This document shows positions 5,585 through 51,276 of a stretch of DNA of 64,000 bases, in pieces. Positions within the stretch are counted from its first letter, which is position 1; the number at the start of each line of letters is the position of its first letter. Location: positions 986-64,985 of the forward strand of contig JBAQUT010000036.1 in assembly GCA_049297695.1 (NCBI GenBank), in the 5' to 3' direction. This DNA comes from Alphaproteobacteria bacterium. GTDB lineage: Bacteria > Pseudomonadota > Alphaproteobacteria > UBA2136 > UBA6156. The translations under genes were made by a program, and so were the position numbers. Under the pieces are notes generated by a model, which did not search any database, was not told the origin of the DNA, and saw only the letters and a list, made by a program, of their open reading frames with translations.

Positions 5585-5998
5585 ATGAAAAAGCCATTAA
5601 CAGTATCGGATTTCAAAGGTCAAGGTAGTTCTAATCTTCATGGGATTCGATGTAGTCCAGTTGCTTTTCCAATTGGAAATGAAAAACAAGATATAGAAAA
5701 CCTTTTACGAGTGATATATCCTAAGGTAGATGAATATTTAGTAGATAAATTTTATGTCGATAAAGTGAAACAATTTCATATAGCTGCTAATTTCATGCAA
5801 AGCTATTTCATGGAGATTGCAATGATGAGAACAGCTTTGACGGTGTTTGATTTTATAGAAGATGTACATCATATAACGCCCGTTATTATTTCATCTGTAT
5901 CTCAAAGTCTTGCTGAGCGTGGCTTTGTTGTGGCTCAAGGTTTTCACGCACATAACAAAGGCATCTACGTTCGTCGTGAGGGTAGTGTTGAGTTATAG
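5585..5998 (+). CDS. hypothetical protein, low-GC (~33%) insertion between the two permease genes
   Basis: ATG 5585 preceded by AGAGGGG RBS; AT-rich codon usage unlike its flanks. Confidence 0.45.
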   Translation: MKKPLTVSDFKGQGSSNLHGIRCSPVAFPIGNEKQDIENLLRVIYPKVDEYLVDKFYVDKVKQFHIAANFMQSYFMEIAMMRTALTVFDFIEDVHHITPVIISSVSQSLAERGFVVAQGFHAHNKGIYVRREGSVEL

Positions 5999-6005
5999 TT
6001 TTTAG

Positions 6006-6719
6006 GTGATTCATCTCGATACCATTCTGGCTGCTCCCAACGTCTTGCACTGGCTCGGCACCGACGAGCTTGGCCGCGACATTCTGCTGCGCCTCGGGCA
6101 GGGGGTGGGCTTAAGTCTCACCGTTGGGCTCTGTGTCGGAGCCATAACCGCGGTTGTGGGCATTACGCTGGGCCTGTGGGCGGGGTGGAAAGGCGGGTGG
6201 GTGGATACGCTGATAAACCGCCTGTGCGATGTGGTGCTCAGCCTGCCGGGCTTGCTGATGGCCTTGGCCCTGACCGCCTTGTTGGGCCCCAGCTTGGTGA
6301 ACGTGATTTTGGCCTTGGGCTTGTTGGGTTGGGTGGGCTTTTGCCGTTTGGCGCGGGCCGAAGTGTTGCGCCTGAAAAACCGCCCTTTTGTGCTGGCAGC
6401 CAAGCTGGGCGGGGTGGGCACGGCGGGTGTGCTGCTGCGCCATGTGCTACCCTTGGCGGCCCCCCCGTTGGTGGTGGAGGCCGTGGTGGTGGTGGCGGGC
6501 AGCATGGTGGCGGAGGCTGGGCTGAGCTTTTTGGGCTTAGGCGTGCCCCCACCCACCCCCAGCTTAGGGGGTATGCTGCGGGAGGGCATTCGCACCGCCA
6601 TGGTGGCCCCCCACGCCGTGCTGGCACCAGCGGTGGTGCTGATTGGTCTCACCGTATCCCTCAACATGGTGGCGGAAGGCTTGCGCGCGCGGTATCTTTC
6701 GGGCACCACACAAGGCTAG
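6006..6719 (+). CDS. ABC transporter permease, DppC/OppC family, apparently N-terminally truncated (first TM missing)
   Basis: Only ~17 aa precede the conserved LGTDELGRD loop motif (typical DppC has ~60-70 aa). In-frame stop immediately upstream at 6003-6005. GTG start. Confidence 0.6.
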   Translation: MIHLDTILAAPNVLHWLGTDELGRDILLRLGQGVGLSLTVGLCVGAITAVVGITLGLWAGWKGGWVDTLINRLCDVVLSLPGLLMALALTALLGPSLVNVILALGLLGWVGFCRLARAEVLRLKNRPFVLAAKLGGVGTAGVLLRHVLPLAAPPLVVEAVVVVAGSMVAEAGLSFLGLGVPPPTPSLGGMLREGIRTAMVAPHAVLAPAVVLIGLTVSLNMVAEGLRARYLSGTTQG

Positions 6720-42124: not shown

Positions 42125-42565
42125 AAGCAGGTACGGGCCTGTCCCGGTTTCGACGGAGCTTGAAGGGGTTCCCAAGGAGCATGCGGTGGGGGTTGGATTC
42201 CACCTAAAAAAGTCCAGCAGGCACTTAAATGCCAAATCGACTGTAGACAATAGCCTTGCGGCCCGTCGCGCTATGCGCGCCATGCCCATGGCTATGGCTG
42301 CCTAACCTAGACTCAGATTGGATTCTGACCTAGGCTAGACGCCCCAAGACCGTTTCCCACAGATTGGCGTGGTGGCGGACCCTTGGATTCATCCCCGCCA
42401 ATCTAGGTTCCCGTGGTGTCTTCACGCGGGTCGCGCCGAAATTAAGATGGGCAACCACAGGGTGCGGGGTGTCTGGCGCTAACTGTGGAACCACCAGACA
42501 CTAAGCATGTAGAGCCACACTTCAACGAGGTTCGGACGTGGGTTCGATTCCCACCAGGTCCACCA
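42125..42565 (+). ncRNA. ssrA: tmRNA (ssrA), one-piece
   Basis: 5' GGGCCTG pairs with 3' CAGGTCC-A-CCA including G3:U70. Conserved TTCGACGG, CCCAAGGAGCATGC and 3' CTAAGCATGTAG...GGTTCGATTCCCACCAGGTCCACCA. Internal frame GCC AAA ...GCT GCC TAA ends with Ala-Ala. Confidence 0.75.
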
Positions 42566-42566
42566 G

Positions 42567-42612
42567 TTAGCAATAAAAATATCCCCATAGAAGGGGATAT
42601 TTTTATTGCTAA
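42567..42612. terminator. long perfect palindrome, bidirectional terminator after ssrA
   Basis: TTAGCAATAAAAATATCCCC ATAG AAGGGGATATTTTTATTGCTAA. Confidence 0.6.
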
Positions 42613-42755
42613 TGACAGAGAGGTGGGGCCCTTCGGGTCCCACCAGGTCGGACGGGATACCAGATACCAAACCTCATTGAAACACTGTCTATACGGGGAG
42701 GGTTACGAAAAACCCCTTGCAGAGAAAAGCCCGATACGGTATTGACGGCCACAGT

Positions 42756-42830
42756 GGGCAGTTAGCTCAGCGGTAGAGCACAGCATTCACATTGCTGGGG
42801 TCGCAGGTTCGAATCCTGCACCGCCCACCA
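42756..42830 (+). tRNA. tRNA-Val (CAC)
   Basis: GGGCAGTTAGCTCAGCGGTAGAGC...anticodon loop TTCACAT...ACCGCCCACCA. Confidence 0.8.
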
Positions 42831-42854
42831 GTTAAGGCTACAGTGCACACCACT

Positions 42855-42940
42855 GGAGGAATTCCCGAGCGGCCAAAGGGGACTGACTGTAAATCAGTTG
42901 GCGTACGCCTTCGAAGGTTCGAATCCTTCTTCCTCCACCA
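42855..42940 (+). tRNA. tRNA-Tyr (GTA), long variable arm
   Basis: GGAGGAATTCCCGAGCGGCCAAAGGGGACTGACTGTAAATCAG...TTCCTCCACCA. Confidence 0.85.
42886..42940 (+). repeat. attL: 3' 55 nt of tRNA-Tyr, identical to the copy at 51116-51170
   Basis: ACTGTAAATCAGTTGGCGTACGCCTTCGAAGGTTCGAATCCTTCTTCCTCCACCA present twice. Confidence 0.8.
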
Positions 42941-43001
42941 TTTTGTTTTATAATATCTTTTCTTGAAAATCCCTCTTCCAAAATTCTCCCTAAAATCTCT
43001 C

Positions 43002-43023
43002 TTTGGGACACTCTTGGGACATT
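43002..43023. repeat. 22-bp direct repeat TTTGGGACACTCTTGGGACATT (copy 1, ~60 bp inside attL)
   Basis: Identical copy at 50977-50998; internal TTGGGACA x2. Confidence 0.6.
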
Positions 43024-43029
43024 TGCTCC

Positions 43030-43068
43030 CTAAAATCGTATAAACCCCCTCTACATCTTTTAGGGGGG
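43030..43068 (-). terminator. putative Rho-independent terminator after umuC
   Basis: CCCCCT...AGGGGG hairpin followed by a T-rich tract on the minus strand. Confidence 0.45.
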
Positions 43069-43081
43069 TGTGGCGTTGCTG

Positions 43082-44341
43082 TTACCTTACTCCCACCAAC
43101 TCATCCCACCGCGTGGTATAGGCACGGGAGAGAGATTCCCGCTTCATCCCCCAGCCCTGTTTAGTGCCAAGGCTCCCCAGCCGCACAAAGGCCTTGCCGT
43201 AGCGGGTATCGAGATTGTCGAGCGTTTGCATCAGGGCTTGGGTGCGGGCGGTATCGGCCCCGTCCAGCAAGCTGGGTTGGTGCTGGGTGGCAGGGATAAG
43301 GTCAAGAAGCAGGATGCCCGCCTTCTTATAGGCAAAGCCCTTGCGGTAAAGGGTGTGGAGCAAGCGGTGGGCGTGCCGTACCAGTTCGGCAGTGTCAGCG
43401 GTGGCGTAGGGCAACCCCATGGCTTGGCTTGCACTATATTGAGAGGCCTTGGGCTTGAACCTGTTAGTATGGGCAAACACCAGCAACCCTTGGGCTAACA
43501 GATTATCCCCTCTTAGCTTGCCAGCGGCGCGGGTTACATAGGCGGCCACCGCTTCTTCCAGTTCGGCCAAGGTGGTTACTTCCCGCCCGAAGCTCCGCGT
43601 GCTTTGGATGCTCTTGCGGGTGGGTTGCACCAGTTCCAGCGGCAAGCAGCTTACCCCCTGCAACTCGCGTACAAGGCGCTCCATCACCACGTTGTACTGT
43701 TTCCGCATGGAGGCGGCATCGGCGTTGCGAAGGTCTAGCCCGCTGTTTATCCGCTGTTCTTTTAACTTCTCGGAAAACTGCCGCCCGATGCCCCATAAAT
43801 CTCCTACGTCCATAGCTCCCAGCGCTGCCTCTTGAGAGGCGTTATCAGACAACAAACAGACACCGCCCAAGGCAGGGTTCTTTTTGGCGGTGCGGTTGGC
43901 GGCTTTGGCGAGGGTTTTGGTGGGGGCAAGGCCGATGCTCACAGGGATGCCCGTCCATTGCTTCACCTTGGCCCGTAGCGCCTGCATTGCGCCTGTTAAG
44001 TGTTCCAAGGGGATGCCCCGCACATCCAAAAAGGCCTCATCCACGCTATACACCTCCACCGCTGGGGCGGCATCCCGCAGCACACTCATCACCCGCGCAC
44101 TCATATCCCCGTAAAGCTGATAGTTGGAAGAAAACACCACCACCCCGTTCTGGCGGCAGAGTTTCTCCACTTTGAACATAGGCGCCCCCATCGGTATCCC
44201 CAGCGCCTTGGCTTCGTTGCTACGGGCTACCACACACCCATCATTATTCGATAACACCACAATGGGTTTGCCTTCCAGCTTGGGGTTGAAGGCCCTCTCA
44301 CACGAAGCATAGAAGTTGTTGCAGTCTACCAGCCCATACAT
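43082..44341 (-). CDS. umuC: Y-family DNA polymerase V catalytic subunit UmuC
   Basis: [23 protein letters not shown] catalytic motifs; 419 aa. Confidence 0.85.
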
Positions 44342-44345
44342 CGCC

Positions 44346-44726
44346 CTACACCTTATGAATCACGTTGCTCACCACACCCCACACCACCAACTCATCCCCC
44401 AGCACCTTGGGCGGCTTGCCTTGTTCGCCCTGCAAGGCCCATTGCCCGTTGACCTTTACCAGCCGCCGCACAAACATCTCTCCCGCCACCACCGCTATCA
44501 CCACGCTCCCCACGGCGGGGGTAAGGCTCTTGTCCACCACCATTAAATCACCTTTAAAGATACCAGCCCCCTGCATGGCATCGGCTTTGGCCCGCACGAA
44601 ATAGGTGGCGGCGGGGTGCTTCACCAAATAGGCGTTCAAGTCCAAGTAACCCTCTAAAAAGTCATCGGCAGGGCTGGGGAAGCCAGCGGCTACGGAACCA
44701 TACAAGGGCAGGAGTTGGGGTTGCAT
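44346..44726 (-). CDS. umuD: UmuD-like S24 peptidase-fold protein with catalytic Ser and Lys replaced (Ala/Arg)
   Basis: VAAGFPSPA cleavage-site region aligns to UmuD CGFPSPA; ASGDSM becomes AKADAM and TVKKL becomes FVRRL. Confidence 0.7.
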
Positions 44727-45031
44727 GGGTTATTGTTGTATCATTAATCACCCGCGGTCAATCCCCATCTATCTCCTTGACGCTGGGGTTATCCCACTCT
44801 AACTTCACAGTTGGAGAGATAACTCTCTGGGGCATCAAAACCTCACAAGATGGCTGGCACCACCAAAAGAGTTGCTGTTTGTGTATTTAGCACATCCTAA
44901 GTTGCGCTCTATGCGGCTGGGTGGTGGTGCTATGTCCAAGGCGTAAGCTGAAAAGCCCCACGCCGTATCTTGTACGGTTTTGAACACCCAGCCACCTTTA
45001 TCGGGTGGCTTTTGTTTGAAACCAACAAAGG

Positions 45032-45334
45032 ATGCACACCATGAAACCCCTCTCTATTGCTGTTCTATTACTGTTATCGGCTTCCGCCGCCCATGCCGAA
45101 TGGGTGAATGGCTACACTCGCAGCAATGGCACCTACGTTGCCCCACACGCTCGTAGCGCCCCCGATGGCAACCGTTTCAACAACTACTCCACCCAAGGCA
45201 ACACAAACCCCTACACAGGCCAAGCGGGAACCGTGAACCCTTACAGCGCCAACCAAGGCGATGCAGGAAACGGCTTTGGTGGTAGCGGCTTCAACCAACC
45301 CAGCACGCCCCGTGGTTTTGGCGGGTGGAGATAA
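45032..45334 (+). CDS. small secreted Gly/Asn-rich hypothetical protein
   Basis: Signal peptide MKPLSIAVLLLLSASAAHA; 100 aa. Confidence 0.4.
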   Translation: MHTMKPLSIAVLLLLSASAAHAEWVNGYTRSNGTYVAPHARSAPDGNRFNNYSTQGNTNPYTGQAGTVNPYSANQGDAGNGFGGSGFNQPSTPRGFGGWR

Positions 45335-45480
45335 GCCATGCAGCAAGAAGATTCAGCCTCACGCCCTGAAATGGTGATTGTGTTTGGCTTTTTTACCCTC
45401 TGGGGGTTCATCGTTGGGCTGGGGGTGGGGTGGTGGGTTTGGTGTTGACATTGAATACAATGCTCTGGTACACCTGCCAT

Positions 45481-46386
45481 ATGGCCAAGATAGCAATCCA
45501 AAAATCCACTGGTGTTCCTGTGCATGCCCGTGACGCCTCCACAACAGCGTTAGAAAGAGGTTTAAACAGCCCTTTTGACTTTGCCTGTATGGAGTGCGGG
45601 GTAACATTGCGCTGCACGCATTACGCCAAACCGTTTTCGGATAAAGACCATGTGTATTTCGGTGTCTATGGTGACGCCTACAAGCATGAACCTTACTGCA
45701 ATTCAGCATATGGCTCGGAGTCAAATGGAAACACGCATAGCCATGAAGAGTGGGAACAAGATGATGTCGAGGTTGTCTCTCCCCGTGTCATGCAATTTGA
45801 ACCCCAAACAAGAAATTTCCCAGAGACTGACATTTCATCCCGCGAGGTTCGTTTAACAGGGCAACAAAAATCCAGAGAAACCCTCACCGATTTGATATGG
45901 AGAAACGGAACAAGTCTTTCCGCCCTCCGCAAAGCCAATGCCTATCAATTTAGAATTAGCGGCCAGATTTTCTCTATGGCTCAAATCTTTAATTCACCAA
46001 CAACAACTCTCATGAATGGTGTTGATGGTAAATCCTTTAATGGCGGTGTAGCATTTGGCTTAGCTCGGATATATAGCAAACCTGCGCCATCTGACCGAGT
46101 ATCCATCAACTTTATGGAACGGTTTAATCATGACGGAAATCTCATCCCTGTTATGGGCAAACTAGACCTTGATACATTACACCTTAACGACCCTATGAGG
46201 CACTGGATAAGAGATGGAATCCAACAAGGTGGGTTGTATGATATAGCCATTAAATGGCGCGAATCAGCTTTGGAGCGTGCCAAGAGAGACGGAGGAAGAT
46301 GGGAGTTTATGAAGGAATCGCCTCAGCTTTGGTTTACGGACATTGAGAAGATAGCTATCAAAGCAAGTTCTGGTAACGGTCGCTAA
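45481..46386 (+). CDS. hypothetical protein (island cargo, reduced GC) with N-terminal Cys/His cluster
   Basis: FACMECGVTLRCTHY...; no family recognised; the track ORF starts at 45430 and the first ATG is 45481. Confidence 0.45.
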   Translation: MAKIAIQKSTGVPVHARDASTTALERGLNSPFDFACMECGVTLRCTHYAKPFSDKDHVYFGVYGDAYKHEPYCNSAYGSESNGNTHSHEEWEQDDVEVVSPRVMQFEPQTRNFPETDISSREVRLTGQQKSRETLTDLIWRNGTSLSALRKANAYQFRISGQIFSMAQIFNSPTTTLMNGVDGKSFNGGVAFGLARIYSKPAPSDRVSINFMERFNHDGNLIPVMGKLDLDTLHLNDPMRHWIRDGIQQGGLYDIAIKWRESALERAKRDGGRWEFMKESPQLWFTDIEKIAIKASSGNGR

Positions 46387-46625
46387 ACCTCATCCGTAAT
46401 CAACTCCCTCCACACCCTCCAAATCTCTAAGTTTTCTAACGAATACCTCCCATGGATGAGGTTGGCCTTGCTAATCGCCTCCCTCCCAGCCTCGGTTTTA
46501 GGCCCCGTAGCCTTCCCCCCATGCAACCGACAACAGCCATTCCGCATGGCAGGTTGACGGCATAGTAGGCGGGTACGTTTGCAGCGGCACTTGCACTTGG
46601 GCAGGGTATGAATGGGAACGGACAT
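46383..46625 (-). CDS. small Cys-rich zinc-ribbon-like protein with an HGG motif (phage-associated type)
   Basis: CKCRCKRTRLLCRQPAMRNGCCRLHGGKATGPKT. Confidence 0.4.
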   Translation of the reverse strand: MSVPIHTLPKCKCRCKRTRLLCRQPAMRNGCCRLHGGKATGPKTEAGREAISKANLIHGRYSLENLEIWRVWRELITDEV

Positions 46626-46629
46626 GGGG

Positions 46630-47238
46630 TTATTCCTCGGTTTTGGGTTTACTGCCCCCACACCCCGCCACCGCCCCCACCACGGCTTGGCCGCCAGCTT
46701 GCACCTCCACCTTCTCCACCACCACACGCTGGGTGCTTATCCCCGCTTGCCGCATTTGGCGTAGCAAGTCCATTTGCCGCAGCAACACGTTTTGAGCTTT
46801 GTGGGCACGGTTGGTGTAATACCCCGCCACCTCCAAAGTGTTATCATCCAACGAGCGTGCCAGCATCCGCATTGCCACATGGTTGGTCGCCACTATCTGG
46901 GCTGCCAACATGCTTTCCAGTTCGTTTTGCGGAGCCAAACCATAAAGCTGGGCCACGATGTTGTTCACGGCATTGGCATCTTTGCTTGGCAAAATGGATT
47001 GCAGGTGGGTCAGCTTCACGTTGATGCTCCCCGCATCCAACGTGCCGAACGCTTGCGCCAGCGTGAACGTGGTTTGAGGTTCGTTCATCACGATGTGCAT
47101 CGAACGATTGCCATCGCCCGTATCTTCCAGCGCAAACTCTTTGCGGTTCTTGTAATCCTCCAGCTTGGCGTTCAACACGGCCCGCTTTTCGGGGGTCAGT
47201 TCAAGTGTCCCTTTGGGTTTGGGGGTGAGGTCGGTCAT
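46630..47238 (-). CDS. hypothetical protein (island)
   Basis: 202-aa ORF downstream of the AAA_25 gene. Confidence 0.4.
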   Translation of the reverse strand: MTDLTPKPKGTLELTPEKRAVLNAKLEDYKNRKEFALEDTGDGNRSMHIVMNEPQTTFTLAQAFGTLDAGSINVKLTHLQSILPSKDANAVNNIVAQLYGLAPQNELESMLAAQIVATNHVAMRMLARSLDDNTLEVAGYYTNRAHKAQNVLLRQMDLLRQMRQAGISTQRVVVEKVEVQAGGQAVVGAVAGCGGSKPKTEE

Positions 47239-47304
47239 GATTTTAGCTTTCGTTAGGTGTTCGTTCGTTCGGTTTCCTAGGAGTGCCGAACGCCGAACGG
47301 GTTA

Positions 47305-48228
47305 TTAGGCGGCTTCAGATTCATTTACCCATGTGTTGATGGTGGATGGGCTGGCCTTCAGTTGGCGGGCAATCTCACGCTGCCCCACACCTTGTTCATG
47401 CAGCACAATCGCTTGTTGCCGCCGTGGGTCAACTTTGCGCCCGCCTGTGTAGGGTTCGTGGTGCCAGATAGCGCCTTGGTCGGTCATCATAAGCCGTACC
47501 AAGGTGGGTTTTGATTCCTTGCCTTGCAGGTGGCGTTTCTTGTCAAAGTTCACCACAAAGTGGCTCCCTTCATCGGGTTCAGGCCCCGCAGGTTCGTACA
47601 ACTCAATGGTGATATCGTTCACCACGTTGTGTTGGCTGCTCCCCCGTTGGTCGCCCCCTTTACCAGCATGGTGCAAAATCAGAATAGCCATGCCGCTGGA
47701 ACGTAACGCCATCAACCAGCTTTGCACGTTATCCCATGTGCCCGAATCATTCTCTCGCATGTTGCTGAACAACGTGCTTTTGTTGTCCAGTACCAGCAAG
47801 TCACAGCCCACGTCATCCACGCGGCACATCAGCTCTTGCTGCCCTTCTTCCGTGTTCAGGTGCTTAATGCGGAACGGGCTTTCACATTGTGCCATGCTGT
47901 AAACAAACAGGTTACCGTGGGTGCCCTGTTTGCCTGTCATGGCATCCAGCCGCCGCATCAGCTCTTGGGAGGGCATTTCGCCATCCACATACACCACACG
48001 GGCTTGGCGGGCAGGGGTGAACCCCAAAAAGGGTTCTCCCCGCGCCAACGCAACCGAGAGGCCCAGCGCAAAGTTGCTTTTTCCAATCCCCGCCTTCGCA
48101 TAAAGCATGTTGATACTGTTGGTCAGCAACCACGGGGGCATGAGTACCTCCCGTGGTGGCAGTTCCAACGCCTGAAAGTCCTCGGCGGCAAAAAAGCCCC
48201 AAGGTGCGTTCGTAAGAGGATGGGTCAT
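47305..48228 (-). CDS. RecA-like NTPase (AAA_25 / RepA-DnaB-like replicative loader family) with C-terminal HTH
   Basis: AKAGIGKSNFAL Walker A; VLDNKSTLF; C-terminal HEQGVGQREIARQLKASPSTINTWV HTH. Confidence 0.6.
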   Translation of the reverse strand: MTHPLTNAPWGFFAAEDFQALELPPREVLMPPWLLTNSINMLYAKAGIGKSNFALGLSVALARGEPFLGFTPARQARVVYVDGEMPSQELMRRLDAMTGKQGTHGNLFVYSMAQCESPFRIKHLNTEEGQQELMCRVDDVGCDLLVLDNKSTLFSNMRENDSGTWDNVQSWLMALRSSGMAILILHHAGKGGDQRGSSQHNVVNDITIELYEPAGPEPDEGSHFVVNFDKKRHLQGKESKPTLVRLMMTDQGAIWHHEPYTGGRKVDPRRQQAIVLHEQGVGQREIARQLKASPSTINTWVNESEAA

Positions 48229-48647
48229 CGCACCACCTCCTCATGCACAATGCAATCAAGTGACCATATGCGAATGTAAGGCGCACCAGTCGGCGGTGTA
48301 ATGAGTTTGATGCGGAAATTGAACCCATACTCACGAAGCCTATCAAAAGCCCCCCAAAACCACTTAGGCGGCTTAGTTTGGGTGCTGAAGTGGCCAAAGC
48401 GTAGCATCTCCAGCGCCCTCACCTCAAAACCGTGAGGAGTCGCCAGTTTGGGCACCATTCCTTTACCCCGCTTCCGCCAAACATACCCATGCGGCAGCGG
48501 ATTTTGGTTGAACCACGGCAACGGTTGGGTTACTTTCCGATTGTTAGCCTTAGTTTTAGATTTGTTTAAAACCTCACGCTCGCCCTTGTAAGCACGTGGG
48601 GTTTTTTGTTTAGCGGCCATCGGTGTTACCCTCCCCTTGCTGGCCAT
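48225..48647 (-). CDS. hypothetical protein (possibly N-terminal partner of the replicase)
   Basis: 140-aa basic ORF overlapping the AAA_25 start by 4 nt. Confidence 0.35.
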   Translation of the reverse strand: MASKGRVTPMAAKQKTPRAYKGEREVLNKSKTKANNRKVTQPLPWFNQNPLPHGYVWRKRGKGMVPKLATPHGFEVRALEMLRFGHFSTQTKPPKWFWGAFDRLREYGFNFRIKLITPPTGAPYIRIWSLDCIVHEEVVR

Positions 48648-48864
48648 CTAGCCAAGCAAAAAACTTGGGTTCATCAATGTAAAGGCGCTTGCCAATCCTC
48701 ACCACGGCAATATCAAGGCCATTGCCTTTAACGGGGCCAACGCTGGAATGTCTGTCTTTGGCTTTCCACAAAAGGTTGCGCATTACGGAGGGCGGAAACG
48801 CGGGATTGCGTTCGGCGAATTTGTCCAGCGTCAGAATCAGCCGCTGGGGTGTTTCATTTGTCAT
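48610..48864 (-). CDS. AlpA/excisionase-family HTH (HTH_17) DNA-binding protein
   Basis: VVRIGKRLYIDEPKFFAWLDG resembles AlpA/Xis C-terminus. Confidence 0.55.
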   Translation of the reverse strand: MTNETPQRLILTLDKFAERNPAFPPSVMRNLLWKAKDRHSSVGPVKGNGLDIAVVRIGKRLYIDEPKFFAWLDGQQGEGNTDGR

Positions 48865-48981
48865 AGGTTTTATTCCTATCAGTTACCGCTAGGCCCCTGC
48901 ATCAATACTTGAGCATTCGCTAGCGTTGATAGGATTAGAACATGAGTTTATCTATATGAAAAGTAACGAGTATTTGCAAAG

Positions 48982-49872
48982 TCATTCACTTTGCAAACTT
49001 TTAATTACTTCGGTTACTAATCTCAACGATGGAGAACCATCTCCCATAGCTTTCATTGTTAACTTTGCAAGATTGTTTCTTGAAAAATTGGGATTTCGAT
49101 TCATAATGGGAATTGCAAAACTCTTAATAAGTTCATTTCTAGCTTTTGCTTGTTCTTTATTTTTAGTTAATCCCTTGCCCTGTCCTTTTGTGATTTTATA
49201 TCCCATTGTACCAAACATTCCTTGGGTCAAAAGATAATCCCCGCGCTTCATAGCAATGTTAAAATCATAATTTAGCCATTGATTTATTTGTCTTAAATCT
49301 CGTAAGTCTACAAGGTCAAGATTCCTACATCTTCCAATTTCTATCTCATCAGGGGATTCTGAGTAGTGAGACTGTTCAAGAATTTCTGAGTATTCACCGC
49401 ATCCAATCCATGAATGCATCCTTTCAGGTGCATAGTACTCTCCAACTCTTATTAATTTATCAATGTAGAGAAGATAGAGTGGATTCTCATAAATAAATTC
49501 ATGGGGCATTGGATATTCAGTTTTTAGGTAATTTTTGTAAAGCTCATACCTAATTACTTCTAATCCAGGGTGTATTAAAGGATGAGCTTTAAGCTGTTCA
49601 ATAATCCACGGTTCATTGTGACAATGCAGTAATTGAAAATCACGTTGCCGCTGACGTTCAATGTACTCTTTATTTAGACGTTCAATTTCATATTCAACAA
49701 TCCTACAGGGATAAGGTATGGTTGATTGTTTTAGTAAATCCTTTAGTAAGCTTTCACTATAGGGCACAGCCTCTATATCATTTAATCTTGAAATATGTCC
49801 TAAATCATATGGGGTCGCATATTCAATTTCATGAATTTTACAATCAAGAAGCTTAAAGTAGTGAGGTATCAC
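48982..49872 (-). CDS. hypothetical protein, strongly low-GC (~35%) cargo next to the integrase
   Basis: 296-aa ORF; no recognisable family; 4-bp overlap with the int stop. Confidence 0.5.
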   Translation of the reverse strand: MIPHYFKLLDCKIHEIEYATPYDLGHISRLNDIEAVPYSESLLKDLLKQSTIPYPCRIVEYEIERLNKEYIERQRQRDFQLLHCHNEPWIIEQLKAHPLIHPGLEVIRYELYKNYLKTEYPMPHEFIYENPLYLLYIDKLIRVGEYYAPERMHSWIGCGEYSEILEQSHYSESPDEIEIGRCRNLDLVDLRDLRQINQWLNYDFNIAMKRGDYLLTQGMFGTMGYKITKGQGKGLTKNKEQAKARNELIKSFAIPIMNRNPNFSRNNLAKLTMKAMGDGSPSLRLVTEVIKSLQSE

Positions 49873-50942
49873 CCAAACACCCTCTCCGTCATTTTGCTCA
49901 CCACTTCAACCGCGTGGTTATCGGCAAGGTGGGCATAGCGTTTCACCATTTGGATGCTGCGGTGGCCCAGAATGGCGGACAGCACGGGCAGGGTAACGCC
50001 TGATTCCAACAGGTAGGTGGCGGCGGTGTGGCGGAGGTCGTGGAAACGGAAGTCCTCTATTTTGGCTTCTTTGAGTGCGGCCTCCCAATGATTGGCTGGG
50101 TCAAGTGGAGCCATACCATCGGCACGGGGGAAGATGAGGTCGGTGTTCAAGCGCCTTACCTTGCTGGCTTCCTGCAAAACTCTATGCGCCAAGCCTGTCA
50201 GGGGTACGGAGCGTTTATCGCCGTTCTTACTATCTTCCACCCGTATCACCTGCCGCGTAAAATCCACATCCCGCCAGCGGAGGTTTAAGAGTTCACCCTT
50301 ACGCATCCCCGTACAAATAGCCATGACAACAAGGGGGTAAAGGAGCGGATGTCGGCCCTCCGCCTTACAGGCTTCCAACAGGGCTTTGCGTTCATCGGCG
50401 GAGAGATAGCGCACGCGGGCGTTGTTGGGTTCCAGCTTTCTTACTTCATTCAAAGGATTAAGGCGAATCCAGTTCAACTCCTTGTGGGCATACGCTAAGG
50501 CGGCGGAAAGGGCTATGAGGTAATGGTTGACGGTGGCGGCCTTGATACGTTGGGCATCCTTGACGTTCCGCCATGTCTTTTGCATGAGTTCCCGCTTGTA
50601 GGTGTTGATTTTGTCGGCGGTAATGTCGATGAGGTATTTATCCCCCAGCCGCTCCTTCCACCACATAAGTTGCTTTTCACGTTGGGCGTACTGATAAGCC
50701 CCCACAGTGTGTTTATAGTTGATAAGGTAATCGGTAATGGTTTCATGAAGGGTACGGACAGCGGCCTCATGGTTTTCAAACTTCAAACCGCGCTTGATGT
50801 CCGCTTCCTCTTTTTGTACCCAATCCTTGGCATCGGAGAGGCGTTCAAATGAGGCGCTTTTGGGTTTATGGCCCTTTAGTCTTATTTTTGCCCGATATGT
50901 TGGGACACCGTTCCGCCCTTTACGCTTTTCAATAACCGCCAT
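49869..50942 (-). CDS. int: tyrosine-type site-specific integrase (P4-like)
   Basis: N-terminal arm-binding region MAVIEKRKGRNGVPTYRAKIR; catalytic HDLRHT...LGH...Y (KRYAHL). Confidence 0.85.
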   Translation of the reverse strand: MAVIEKRKGRNGVPTYRAKIRLKGHKPKSASFERLSDAKDWVQKEEADIKRGLKFENHEAAVRTLHETITDYLINYKHTVGAYQYAQREKQLMWWKERLGDKYLIDITADKINTYKRELMQKTWRNVKDAQRIKAATVNHYLIALSAALAYAHKELNWIRLNPLNEVRKLEPNNARVRYLSADERKALLEACKAEGRHPLLYPLVVMAICTGMRKGELLNLRWRDVDFTRQVIRVEDSKNGDKRSVPLTGLAHRVLQEASKVRRLNTDLIFPRADGMAPLDPANHWEAALKEAKIEDFRFHDLRHTAATYLLESGVTLPVLSAILGHRSIQMVKRYAHLADNHAVEVVSKMTERVFG

Positions 50943-50976
50943 TTTTCATACCCATCTTAGATTCTAGCTATTCCCA

Positions 50977-50998
50977 TTTGGGACACTCTTGGGACATT
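50977..50998. repeat. 22-bp direct repeat TTTGGGACACTCTTGGGACATT (copy 2, between int and attR)
   Basis: Identical to 43002-43023. Confidence 0.6.
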
Positions 50999-51115
50999 AG
51001 AGCATAGTAAGTAGGAATAATCCAGCGGAGGCTAAAGCAAGGTGATTCGTTATTATTCAAATGGATGATTACTTTTGTTACTTTCCTATTATTCCCATTT
51101 ATACCGCTGGTCAAA

Positions 51116-51170
51116 ACTGTAAATCAGTTGGCGTACGCCTTCGAAGGTTCGAATCCTTCTTCCTCCACCA
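51116..51170 (+). repeat. attR: duplicated 3' 55 nt of tRNA-Tyr
   Basis: Identical to 42886-42940; not preceded by the 5' half of a tRNA. Confidence 0.8.
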
Positions 51171-51255
51171 TATTTGCCCCAAGGGGGCTTATGACAAAGC
51201 AAGAAGAAGGAACAACGGCTTCACACGGCCGCAGGCCACATACAAACCAGCCGTC

Positions 51256-51276
51256 ATCCTTCTTCCTCCACCATTT
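51256..51276 (+). repeat. third, 21-bp copy of the tRNA-Tyr 3' terminus (ATCCTTCTTCCTCCACCATTT)
   Basis: Lies 85 bp beyond attR. Confidence 0.55.

Follow-up and report, generated by a model that had tools for sequence, protein, structure and literature searches.

The locus considered here raises the question of what kind of mobile element has settled in a tRNA-Tyr gene, and by what route it may travel. It lies in a stretch of 64,000 nucleotides (nt) from contig JBAQUT010000036.1 of assembly GCA_049297695.1, referred to below as the window, where an island of 8.2 kb, with 11 open reading frames (ORFs) between direct repeats, has the tRNA-Tyr gene as its target. The island entered by site-specific integration and has an intact recombination module. 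With moderate confidence, we consider its life cycle to be that of a phage satellite, namely a minimalist element resembling the phage-inducible chromosomal islands (PICI), the phage-inducible chromosomal minimalist islands (PICMI) of Vibrionaceae or the tycheposons, with umuDC as cargo. This reading is preferred because distant relatives of its integrase (int), excisionase-position (Xis-position) and replication protein (Rep) genes carry capsid, protease, portal and large terminase (TerL) genes, because one of its proteins, HGG80, shares homology with the N-terminal domain of the small terminases (TerS) of phages, because the rep stop codon is followed throughout the family by a conserved inverted-iteron element that has CCYTAGG at its core, and because its gene order mirrors the int-iolg-alpA-up1-prim order of PICMI (PMC10803314). 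An initial annotation of the window had judged the gene set to be satellite-like rather than that of a prophage, a view strengthened by the occurrence of int, Xis-position and Rep homologues in capsid-encoding IMG/VR elements and by the small-terminase homology of HGG80.

Integration into tRNA-Tyr

The tRNA-Tyr gene (anticodon GTA; 42855..42940, plus strand) is intact, as called by ARAGORN and by Rfam (RF00005 tRNA call at 42855-42937, 55.2 bits). A repeat search matched 42886-42944 with 51116-51174 (98% over 59 nt), and direct reading gives an exact identity of 57 nt between 42886-42942 and 51116-51172, with differing bases on either side (G/A at 42885/51115 and T/A at 42943/51173). The initial annotation had the 3' 55 nt of tRNA-Tyr exactly repeated at 51116, and the identity proves to be 2 nt longer, starting in the anticodon loop of the tRNA (ACTGTAAATC) and ending 2 nt past the CCA end. 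Its observation that no tRNA 5' half precedes the second copy also stands: neither ARAGORN nor Rfam calls a tRNA at 51116, and on direct reading the sequence before this position is unrelated to the tRNA 5' half. An exact repeat of 57 nt cannot be due to chance. The copy inside the tRNA gene is the attL core (42886..42942, plus strand), and the displaced 3' 57 nt of tRNA-Tyr are the attR core (51116..51172, plus strand), with an intact integrase gene beside it, in keeping with the attL/attR assignment made earlier. The locus has the features of a tRNA-integrated island, namely direct repeats of the 3' part of a tRNA gene that itself is intact, and an intact recombinase beside one att site. The tRNA stays intact because the element brought a replacement when it inserted into the 3' half of the gene, through site-specific recombination by a tyrosine recombinase.

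Both att arms carry further repeats. The left arm holds the 22-nt sequence TTTGGGACACTCTTGGGACATT (43002..43023, plus strand), made up of two TTGGGACA heptamers 11 bp apart, and an exact copy lies at 50977-50998; in a motif scan, the right-arm TTGGGACA sites (50900..50998, plus strand) start at 50900, 50978 and 50989. The window contains six TTGGGACA sites, five of which fall within the two att arms, and the motif occurs in the same number and layout at both ends of the sister island L084 (introduced below). This distribution fits candidate integrase arm-type sites. Excision would be expected to yield an attP junction in which the right arm, ending in tataccgctggtcaaa, is joined through the 57-nt core to the left arm, starting with tttgttttataatatc (in longer form, ...cccatttataccgctggtcaaa, core, tttgttttataatatcttttc...), whereas the expected empty attB would consist of the tRNA-Tyr 5' half, the core and atatttgccccaaggg. 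The flanking flavoprotein found best matches of just 52-58% identity in 185,579 species genomes, leaving no related locus for comparison, and an exact-protein look-up of the integrase returned no match. The corresponding look-up of the flavoprotein returned one other contig with the flank, L001, which is 2.3 kb long and breaks inside the repeat.

A third copy of the tRNA-Tyr 3' end, of 21 nt (51256..51276, plus strand; identical to 42923-42943), lies 83 nt beyond the attR copy and is also present in the Logan contig L001, at 116-136. The 83-nt spacer is unlike the arms of the present island, and the copy is probably the relic of an earlier integration at tRNA-Tyr whose element was almost wholly deleted.

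A family of sister islands

The island belongs to a family of elements of 7.5-14 kb that share a core gene order and in several cases lie in or beside tRNA genes. The order runs from int through a variable gene that usually overlaps int, the Xis-position gene, a gene for a protein of 108-175 amino acids (aa) and a gene for Rep, an AAA_25 NTPase with a helix-turn-helix (HTH), to the cargo; between Rep and cargo, L084, L237 and the window carry orf202 and an HGG gene of 80-83 aa. Of the 11 island genes, 8 have orthologues in L084 (7.5 kb), with identities of 51-79%, and the end of L084 was read by eye as the 3' half of a tRNA-Lys(CTT), from the anticodon loop, at a place where ARAGORN called no tRNA. 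L083 is an island of 7.6 kb flanked by a 22-nt repeat, read by eye as a tRNA 3' end, L082 lies at tRNA-Ser, L364 lies beside tRNA-Leu(taa), and L237 and L362 share the core order. A conserved family design is found at several insertion sites, at least three of which are tRNA genes.

The type of integrase is swapped within the family: L082, L083, L237, L362 and L364 have a P4-type enzyme (with Arm-DNA-bind_3), the window and L084 one of the Int_N type. umuDC is present at the int-distal end of four of the seven members (the window, L083, L084 and L362), and other cargo includes O-antigen and glycosyltransferase genes in L237 and very large proteins in L082. Literature searches found no published description of this island family or of the HGGxSTG domain, and the family, which is related to known phage satellites, is apparently undescribed.

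The recombination module

On the island, umuC, umuD, HGG80, orf202, rep, orf140, orf84, orf296 and the integrase gene are on the minus strand, and the gene for a 100-aa secreted protein and orf318 are on the plus strand. The tyrosine integrase (357 aa; 49869..50942, minus strand) faces inward from attR and matches Phage_integrase over the whole domain (E 1.6e-35) and Int_N (PF24624; E 2e-6). Its translation shows the R...HxxR...H...Y residues, and its orthologue in L084 is 67% identical. The uninterrupted ORF and full-domain match settle that the integrase adjoining attR is not frameshifted. The P4-type label attached to it initially does not hold, the criterion for that type being an N-terminal Arm-DNA-bind_3 (DUF4102) together with Phage_int_M: the protein is without Arm-DNA-bind_3/DUF4102, has Int_N and Phage_integrase only, and scores 19.9 bits against PRK09692, where the cutoff is 434.

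Overlapping the integrase stop codon by 4 nt (GTGA) is the GTG start codon of orf296 (48982..49872, minus strand), an ORFan with a GC content of ~34%. A search of 5.8 billion proteins returned only orf296 itself, and variable genes that overlap int are also found in L082, L084, L237 and L362. The overlap with the integrase stop resembles that of the 'iolg' gene of the PICMI satellites.

The Xis-position gene of the island is orf84 (48610..48864, minus strand), a candidate excisionase or AlpA-like regulator assigned by position only, with a 68% identical orthologue in L084 and homologues of 32-36% identity in three IMG/VR elements (L165, L168 and L170) that are discussed below. In L082, L083, L237 and L364, the same position is occupied by AlpA or HTH_17 genes. 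The agreement of orf84 with AlpA is limited to position and a VRIGKRxYxxxxFxxW motif, Pfam, PHROG, NCBIfam, hhalign, AlphaFold2 (AF2) and Foldseek comparisons having all been negative or non-significant; the AlpA/Xis-like HTH call of the initial annotation is not supported beyond these two features. Between orf84 and rep lies orf140 (48225..48647, minus strand), a small fast-evolving gene that overlaps rep by 4 nt and has no family match. A counterpart of 108-175 aa is found at this position in every sister island, and those of L084 and L083 are 26% identical to orf140.

Rep and an origin-like element

Rep (307 aa; 47305..48228, minus strand) is an AAA_25 (RepA/DnaB-like) NTPase (E 5e-31) with a C-terminal HTH (HTH_29/HTH_23 at residues 269-305), as had been described from the initial reading. 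Its PHROG matches are confined to the helicase parts of primase-helicases, and Pfam, PHROG and NCBIfam find no primase domain in orf140 or in Rep itself. The 207 Rep homologues are usually encoded 2-4 kb from an integrase gene, and the window Rep is 100% identical to a protein of a metagenome-assembled genome at NCBI.

Directly after the rep stop codon lies a cis element (47259..47300, minus strand; sequence CCGTTCGGCGTTCGGCACTCCTAGGAAACCGAACGAACGAAC) in which (GTTCGGC)x2 is followed by the spacer CACTCCTAGGAAA and by inverted CCGAAC/GAAC copies. Scans for tandem repeats found no classical iteron arrays, and the element was recognised because of the comparison with the sister islands. In the shared design, a spacer of 12-14 nt with a C[CT]TA[GAT] core separates two tandem heptamers from two copies in inverted orientation, and this design is also present in L084, L082, L083, L237, L364 and L362, with the arms co-varying: they are of the GTTCGG type in L084, L082 and L083, ATTCGG in L237, TGTTTAC in L364 and TGTTTCA in L362, and in distant relatives TGTCCCA, GTTGCA or TGGTGCA. 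To gauge how often such structures arise, 81 non-redundant rep 3' regions were set against 243 control windows from the same loci. An inverted repeat scoring at least 10 was found in 33 of the 81 regions and 5 of the 243 controls, and one scoring at least 12 in 16 and 1, respectively. The C[CT]TA[GAT] core was present in the spacer in 36 of 52 cases, against a chance expectation of ~5% by our own rough estimate.

The arms change between lineages yet stay inverted copies of each other, while the centre, which includes the CCYTAGG core of the conserved element, is fixed. In the close clade, members with GTTCGG-type arms resemble one another in the recognition-helix region of the Rep HTH, and the other members differ there. 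In SaPI replicons (those of the Staphylococcus aureus pathogenicity islands), the origin lies just 3' of rep. The arrangement in the window is suggestive of the same, and the element is likely to be a Rep-binding origin just 3' of rep.

In L165, L168 and L170, rep is flanked by two iteron clusters (TGGTGCA/TGCACCA), one near the start and one after the stop, where the window has the downstream cluster only. In the case of two other Rep homologues, P0004 (from L083) and P0006, the annotated proteins read through the element, and their C-terminal extensions (...GVRRSAALGETNAEHL... and ...GVRCSPSLGLPNSEH...) are its translation; either these stop codons were called too late, which is probable, or the coding sequence includes the element in these two cases. 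In distant relatives (for instance L096, L099, L161 and L171), the commonest inverted-iteron arm after rep (TGTCCCA-C-TGTCCCA) consists of the heptamer TGTCCCA that the window and L084 have, direct and at 11-bp spacing, in their att arms; this may reflect coincidence, an exchange of modules or one protein acting at both sites. Promoter and terminator scans gave signals at background level.

HGG80, orf202 and a possible link to packaging

HGG80 (46383..46625, minus strand) is an HGGxSTG protein of 80 aa whose homology is to the N-terminal domain found in small terminases of phages; it matches NF041373 at E 1.4e-6 and 27.9 bits (cutoff 29). Scanning IMG/VR with a degenerate pattern yielded more than 100 HGGxSTG proteins. 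Those of 150-250 aa have the motif at the N-terminus and match terminase-small-subunit PHROGs (E down to 1e-55), and the gene directly downstream encodes TerL in all eight cases tested. The HGG80 family aligns with the first ~57 residues of these viral proteins with an hhalign probability of 99.5% (E 5e-23), covering the N-terminal 53 columns of TerS only. HGG80 is regarded as a stand-alone small-terminase N-domain because of this match to the N-termini of TerS-like proteins encoded upstream of TerL, and small-terminase N-domains are its only detectable homology. The absence of capsid, tail and terminase genes, on which the initial annotation had relied, thus holds for capsid and tail and has to be qualified for terminase. 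Counterparts of this stand-alone gene, of 80-83 aa and 58-60% identity, are found at different sites in L084, L237 and L239. Stand-alone HGGxSTG proteins of 72-95 aa are also encoded by many viral contigs (IMG/VR loci L243-L360).

The neighbouring orf202 (46630..47238, minus strand) is a conserved partner of HGG80, with 31 homologues, none of them annotated. It always lies between a replicase gene and the HGG gene, even beside a different replicase (Toprim_3+DUF927 in L238), and in one homologue, P0148, an HGGxSTG domain is fused at the C-terminus. This fusion links the adjacent orf202 and HGG80 genes in a predicted functional tie. An AF2 model of orf202 (pLDDT 81) consists entirely of helices, among them a long helical hairpin, and leaves the conserved C-terminal motif (QRVVVExVxVxAGGQAVVGAV) unstructured. 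PHROG searches with orf202 found no match except for the HGG part of P0148. The notion that orf202 and HGG80 represent a canonical TerS split in two was rejected, as orf202 matched no PDB entry or PHROG and, by profile, not the C-terminal part of TerS, and the homology of the HGG domain stands alone.

Comparison with known elements

Among the more distant relatives of the island are L165, L168 and L170 from IMG/VR, which share with the window the integrase (36-39% identity), an orf84-like gene (32-36%) and Rep (34%). In L165 and L170, an HK97-type capsid, an S78 prohead protease, a portal and TerL are encoded within ~10 kb, and L168 (7.3 kb) encodes capsid, protease and portal; no tail-like gene was seen among the ORFs of the three, the family scan having covered the named L165 genes only. 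Their architecture is like that of the capsid-forming PICI (cf-PICI) described in PMC10085698. An early suggestion that L165 and L170 sit at tRNA-Leu in the same geometry as the window island was dropped, as the strand does not fit.

PICI and cf-PICI have a common integrase-proximal half (PMC10085698). Like them, the island has a module of int, a small candidate regulator and a replicase, homologous to that of L165, L168 and L170, as well as a terS-related gene and no tail or lysis genes. Unlike a cf-PICI, it is without capsid, portal, protease, connector and TerL: the L165 capsid, protease, portal, terS and terL found no match in the window by tblastn, and none was found by Pfam or PHROG. Of the PICI components, the integrase is present and the AAA_25 NTPase is homologous to the cf-PICI-like replicase; the island stays below the 4-5 core components required by the SatelliteFinder definitions (PMC10085698), with no capsid-morphogenesis gene, only the N-domain of TerS and no primase domain.

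The resemblance to PICMI is one of size and layout. Both are very small, with int, an int-overlapping gene (by 4 nt in the island), a gene at the Xis/AlpA position, a small gene and a replicase, without capsid-remodelling genes and with accessory genes of unknown function. In PICMI, the int-overlapping gene is required for excision, and an element of 6 kb is packaged as concatemers (PMC10803314). The definition of PICMI calls for a primase with DUF3987/DUF5906, an AlpA that Pfam recognises and insertion beside fis (PMC10803314), whereas the island has the AAA_25+HTH Rep, no recognisable AlpA and tRNA-Tyr as its target, and carries the orf202/HGG pair and umuDC, which are missing from PICMI. 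The int-overlapping gene and the minimal set (11 genes, 8.2 kb) are PICMI traits of the island, and the primase, AlpA and fis traits are not found in it.

The tycheposons of Prochlorococcus share with the island a tRNA target, a tyrosine recombinase that faces inward from one end, a replication module of small size and variable adaptive cargo, and the gene map agrees with their descriptive definition (bioRxiv 10.1101/2020.12.28.424599). They differ in host lineage and in their cargo of nutrient-uptake genes, where umuDC recurs here. Cargo-carrying and PICI-like tycheposons are linked by common integration and replication modules (bioRxiv 10.1101/2020.12.28.424599), a relationship that parallels that of the window island to L165. 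With P4-like satellites the likeness lies in the sister islands, as L082, L083, L237, L362 and L364 combine an integrase of the P4 type with insertion at tRNA genes, and AlpA is also used among them; the window integrase differs by being without the P4-type arm-binding domain, and no Pfam or PHROG family corresponding to psu, delta, sid, epsilon or the alpha primase-helicase is matched on the island. Lacking the defining features of P4-like satellites, cf-PICI, PICI and PICMI, the island is an element that fits no named family's definition.

How the island may spread

In the satellite life cycle that we favour, Int would excise the island, aided by orf84 and perhaps by the int-overlapping orf296, and Rep would bind the inverted-iteron element 3' of its gene and replicate the circle. 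Together, orf202 and HGG80, the latter corresponding to the DNA-side N-domain of one class of phage small terminases, would engage the packaging machinery of a helper phage, and phage particles would carry the island DNA out of the cell, as they do for PICI and PICMI satellites; umuDC, the small secreted protein and two ORFans would travel as cargo. A more specific version, which we advance only tentatively, is that of an undescribed family of minimalist satellites with a split small-terminase-like module (orf202 and the TerS N-domain) as its hijacking device, an AAA_25+HTH replicon with an inverted-iteron/CCYTAGG origin, and a habitual DNA polymerase V (Pol V) cargo with a UmuD that does not cleave itself. 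If such a family exists, error-prone repair would be spread by phage particles under the same DNA damage that induces helper prophages. Should the island represent a real satellite lineage, it would extend the range of PICI, PICMI and tycheposons to elements missed by current satellite-finding models, having no recognisable AlpA, primase, capsid gene or full terS. The pair of orf202 and a TerS N-domain would then be a candidate new device for redirecting packaging, the AAA_25+HTH Rep with its inverted-iteron origin a replicon widespread in metagenomes and IMG/VR and nearly absent from sequenced phages and plasmids, and translesion-polymerase genes a regular cargo of very small islands.

A number of observations weigh against transmission as a satellite. 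Pfam and PHROG scans of the 11 proteins found no gene for capsid morphogenesis or remodelling, HGG80 is without the oligomerisation part of a small terminase, and no full-length terS is on the island. The partner protein orf202 has no sequence match in the PDB and no significant fold match (HK97 small-terminase chains appear just at E ~8), and its hhalign probability with the rest, that is the C-terminal part, of TerS is 0.3%. For orf84, there is no Pfam, PHROG or NCBIfam match, a probability of 5% against the AlpA/HTH_17 proteins of the sister islands by hhalign, and no significant Foldseek match of its AF2 model. Rep is without a primase domain, and its relatives are almost absent from sequenced phages and from 72,556 plasmids; the close family, at 44% Rep identity or more, is found only in ordinary assemblies, and Rep identity in IMG/VR is at most 37%. 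No close relative of the host was found by the flavoprotein scan of genome contigs, and stable cargo such as umuDC is also typical of phage-independent islands. A possible, if rather unlikely, alternative is a phage-independent cargo island that integrates, excises and replicates alone, with HGG80 and orf202 serving replication or regulation and not packaging. Such an island would spread as tycheposons may, vesicles, transformation or generalised transduction having been proposed for those that carry cargo (bioRxiv 10.1101/2020.12.28.424599), and both the want of a capsid-remodelling gene or full terS and the absence of close relatives from IMG/VR agree with it. It is harder to reconcile with HGG80, which resembles nothing other than small-terminase N-domains, and with an int, Xis-position and Rep module that is common to capsid-encoding, cf-PICI-like elements.

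Those same capsid-encoding relatives could be taken to mean that the island is the decaying relic of a capsid-forming satellite, which lost its packaging module, gained umuDC and became fixed in the chromosome, as they hold capsid, portal and TerL where the island has cargo. HGG80 resembles a truncated terS, UmuD has lost its catalytic dyad, and the att copy at 51256-51276 indicates a site that accumulates debris. Decay is nonetheless improbable: no mismatch separates the att cores over their 57 nt, the ORFs of the integrase and of the whole core are intact, and the UmuD substitutions are common to L084 across 72% identity. Moreover, the capsid-less design with a stand-alone HGG gene recurs in L084, L237 and L239, which argues that it is maintained and did not arise by independent decay. 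The inverted repeat after rep also invites a reading as an origin of transfer (oriT), the island being an integrative mobilisable element that depends on a conjugative plasmid or an integrative and conjugative element for its movement. Small size, an integrase, an inverted repeat conserved with its centre and five proteins without assigned function, among which a novel relaxase is conceivable, would suit that reading, which we nevertheless regard as very improbable, given that Pfam, NCBIfam and PHROGs show no domain of a relaxase, coupling protein or type IV secretion system in the 11 proteins, that the plasmids searched hold almost no Rep relatives, and that the inverted repeat goes with the rep gene, as is usual for origins.

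Cargo genes

The umuDC genes named in the initial annotation were verified by Pfam and NCBIfam family scans. umuC (43082..44341, minus strand) encodes a Y-family polymerase of 419 aa with IMS (E 2.9e-41), IMS_C and DUF4113 matches, a match to phrog_1268 at E 1.6e-148, and the catalytic motif SVDEAF in its translation. The umuD-like gene (44346..44726, minus strand) encodes 126 aa, with matches to Peptidase_S24 (E 4.8e-20) and PRK10276 (E 8.5e-36). When aligned with E. coli UmuD and those of the sister islands, the Ser-Lys dyad is replaced (S60A and K97R, E. coli numbering), the motifs of the window and L084 proteins reading ADAM (in the window) or SDAM for GDSM and VRR for VKK. In both proteins (L084 UmuD, 5703-6089), the Ala-Gly cleavage site is kept and the N-terminal arm is shortened, whereas UmuD of L083 and L362 has the canonical dyad. 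The loss looks maintained and not a recent defect, because it is common to the window and L084 across 72% identity. Judged from these residues, the island UmuD cannot cleave itself. HumD of phage P1 is a UmuD homologue that acts uncleaved, and the island UmuD has a weak match to the HumD family (E 2.1e-20, below the cutoff). The presence of UmuD without catalytic residues in two diverged islands raises the question of how Pol V is activated or used without self-cleavage, whether by action of the uncleaved protein or by cutting in trans. No SOS box of the form CTGT-N8-ACAG or GTTC-N7-GTTC was seen upstream of umuD, in 44727-45031.

As accessory cargo, the operon resembles the umuDC/rumAB-type genes of mobile elements in being Pol V-type, with a UmuD homologue whose N-terminus is shortened; it differs in recurring at one fixed place within a family whose islands are much smaller, and in having the dyad replaced in two members. 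umuDC has been reported in a PICI of Enterobacter cloacae (PMC13612085).

Upstream of umuD, a gene on the plus strand (45032..45334) encodes a small secreted protein of 100 aa with a signal peptide (phrog_29674, E 6.6e-15). This is the best-conserved gene, at 75-79% identity in L082, L083 and L084, above integrase or Rep. Next to it is orf318 (45430..46386, plus strand), an ORFan with no match in four family libraries that retrieved only itself from 1.84 billion representative proteins. The GC profile agrees with the earlier report of several lower-GC ORFs without known function, orf296 and orf318 having ~34% and ~45% against ~56% in the surroundings. A PADLOC defence scan gave no meaningful match for any island protein, and scans of the family libraries found no capsid, tail, lysis, relaxase or known defence domain in the 11 proteins.

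Neighbouring RNA genes

The upstream neighbours of tRNA-Tyr are a tmRNA gene, then tRNA-Val. Three classical integration targets are thereby arranged in a row within 800 bp (42135-42940), tRNA-Tyr alone being occupied, with a perfect inverted repeat of 20 bp (42567-42612) immediately behind the tmRNA. The tmRNA itself (42135-42565) is of the one-piece RF00023 type (98 bits), and the source is labelled 'Alphaproteobacteria bacterium' at NCBI. Alphaproteobacteria generally have the two-piece form of tmRNA, and a wrong taxonomic label or poor sampling of the lineage may lie behind this discrepancy. The tmRNA tag peptide called by ARAGORN, which ends in ...PMAMAA, also looks unusual.

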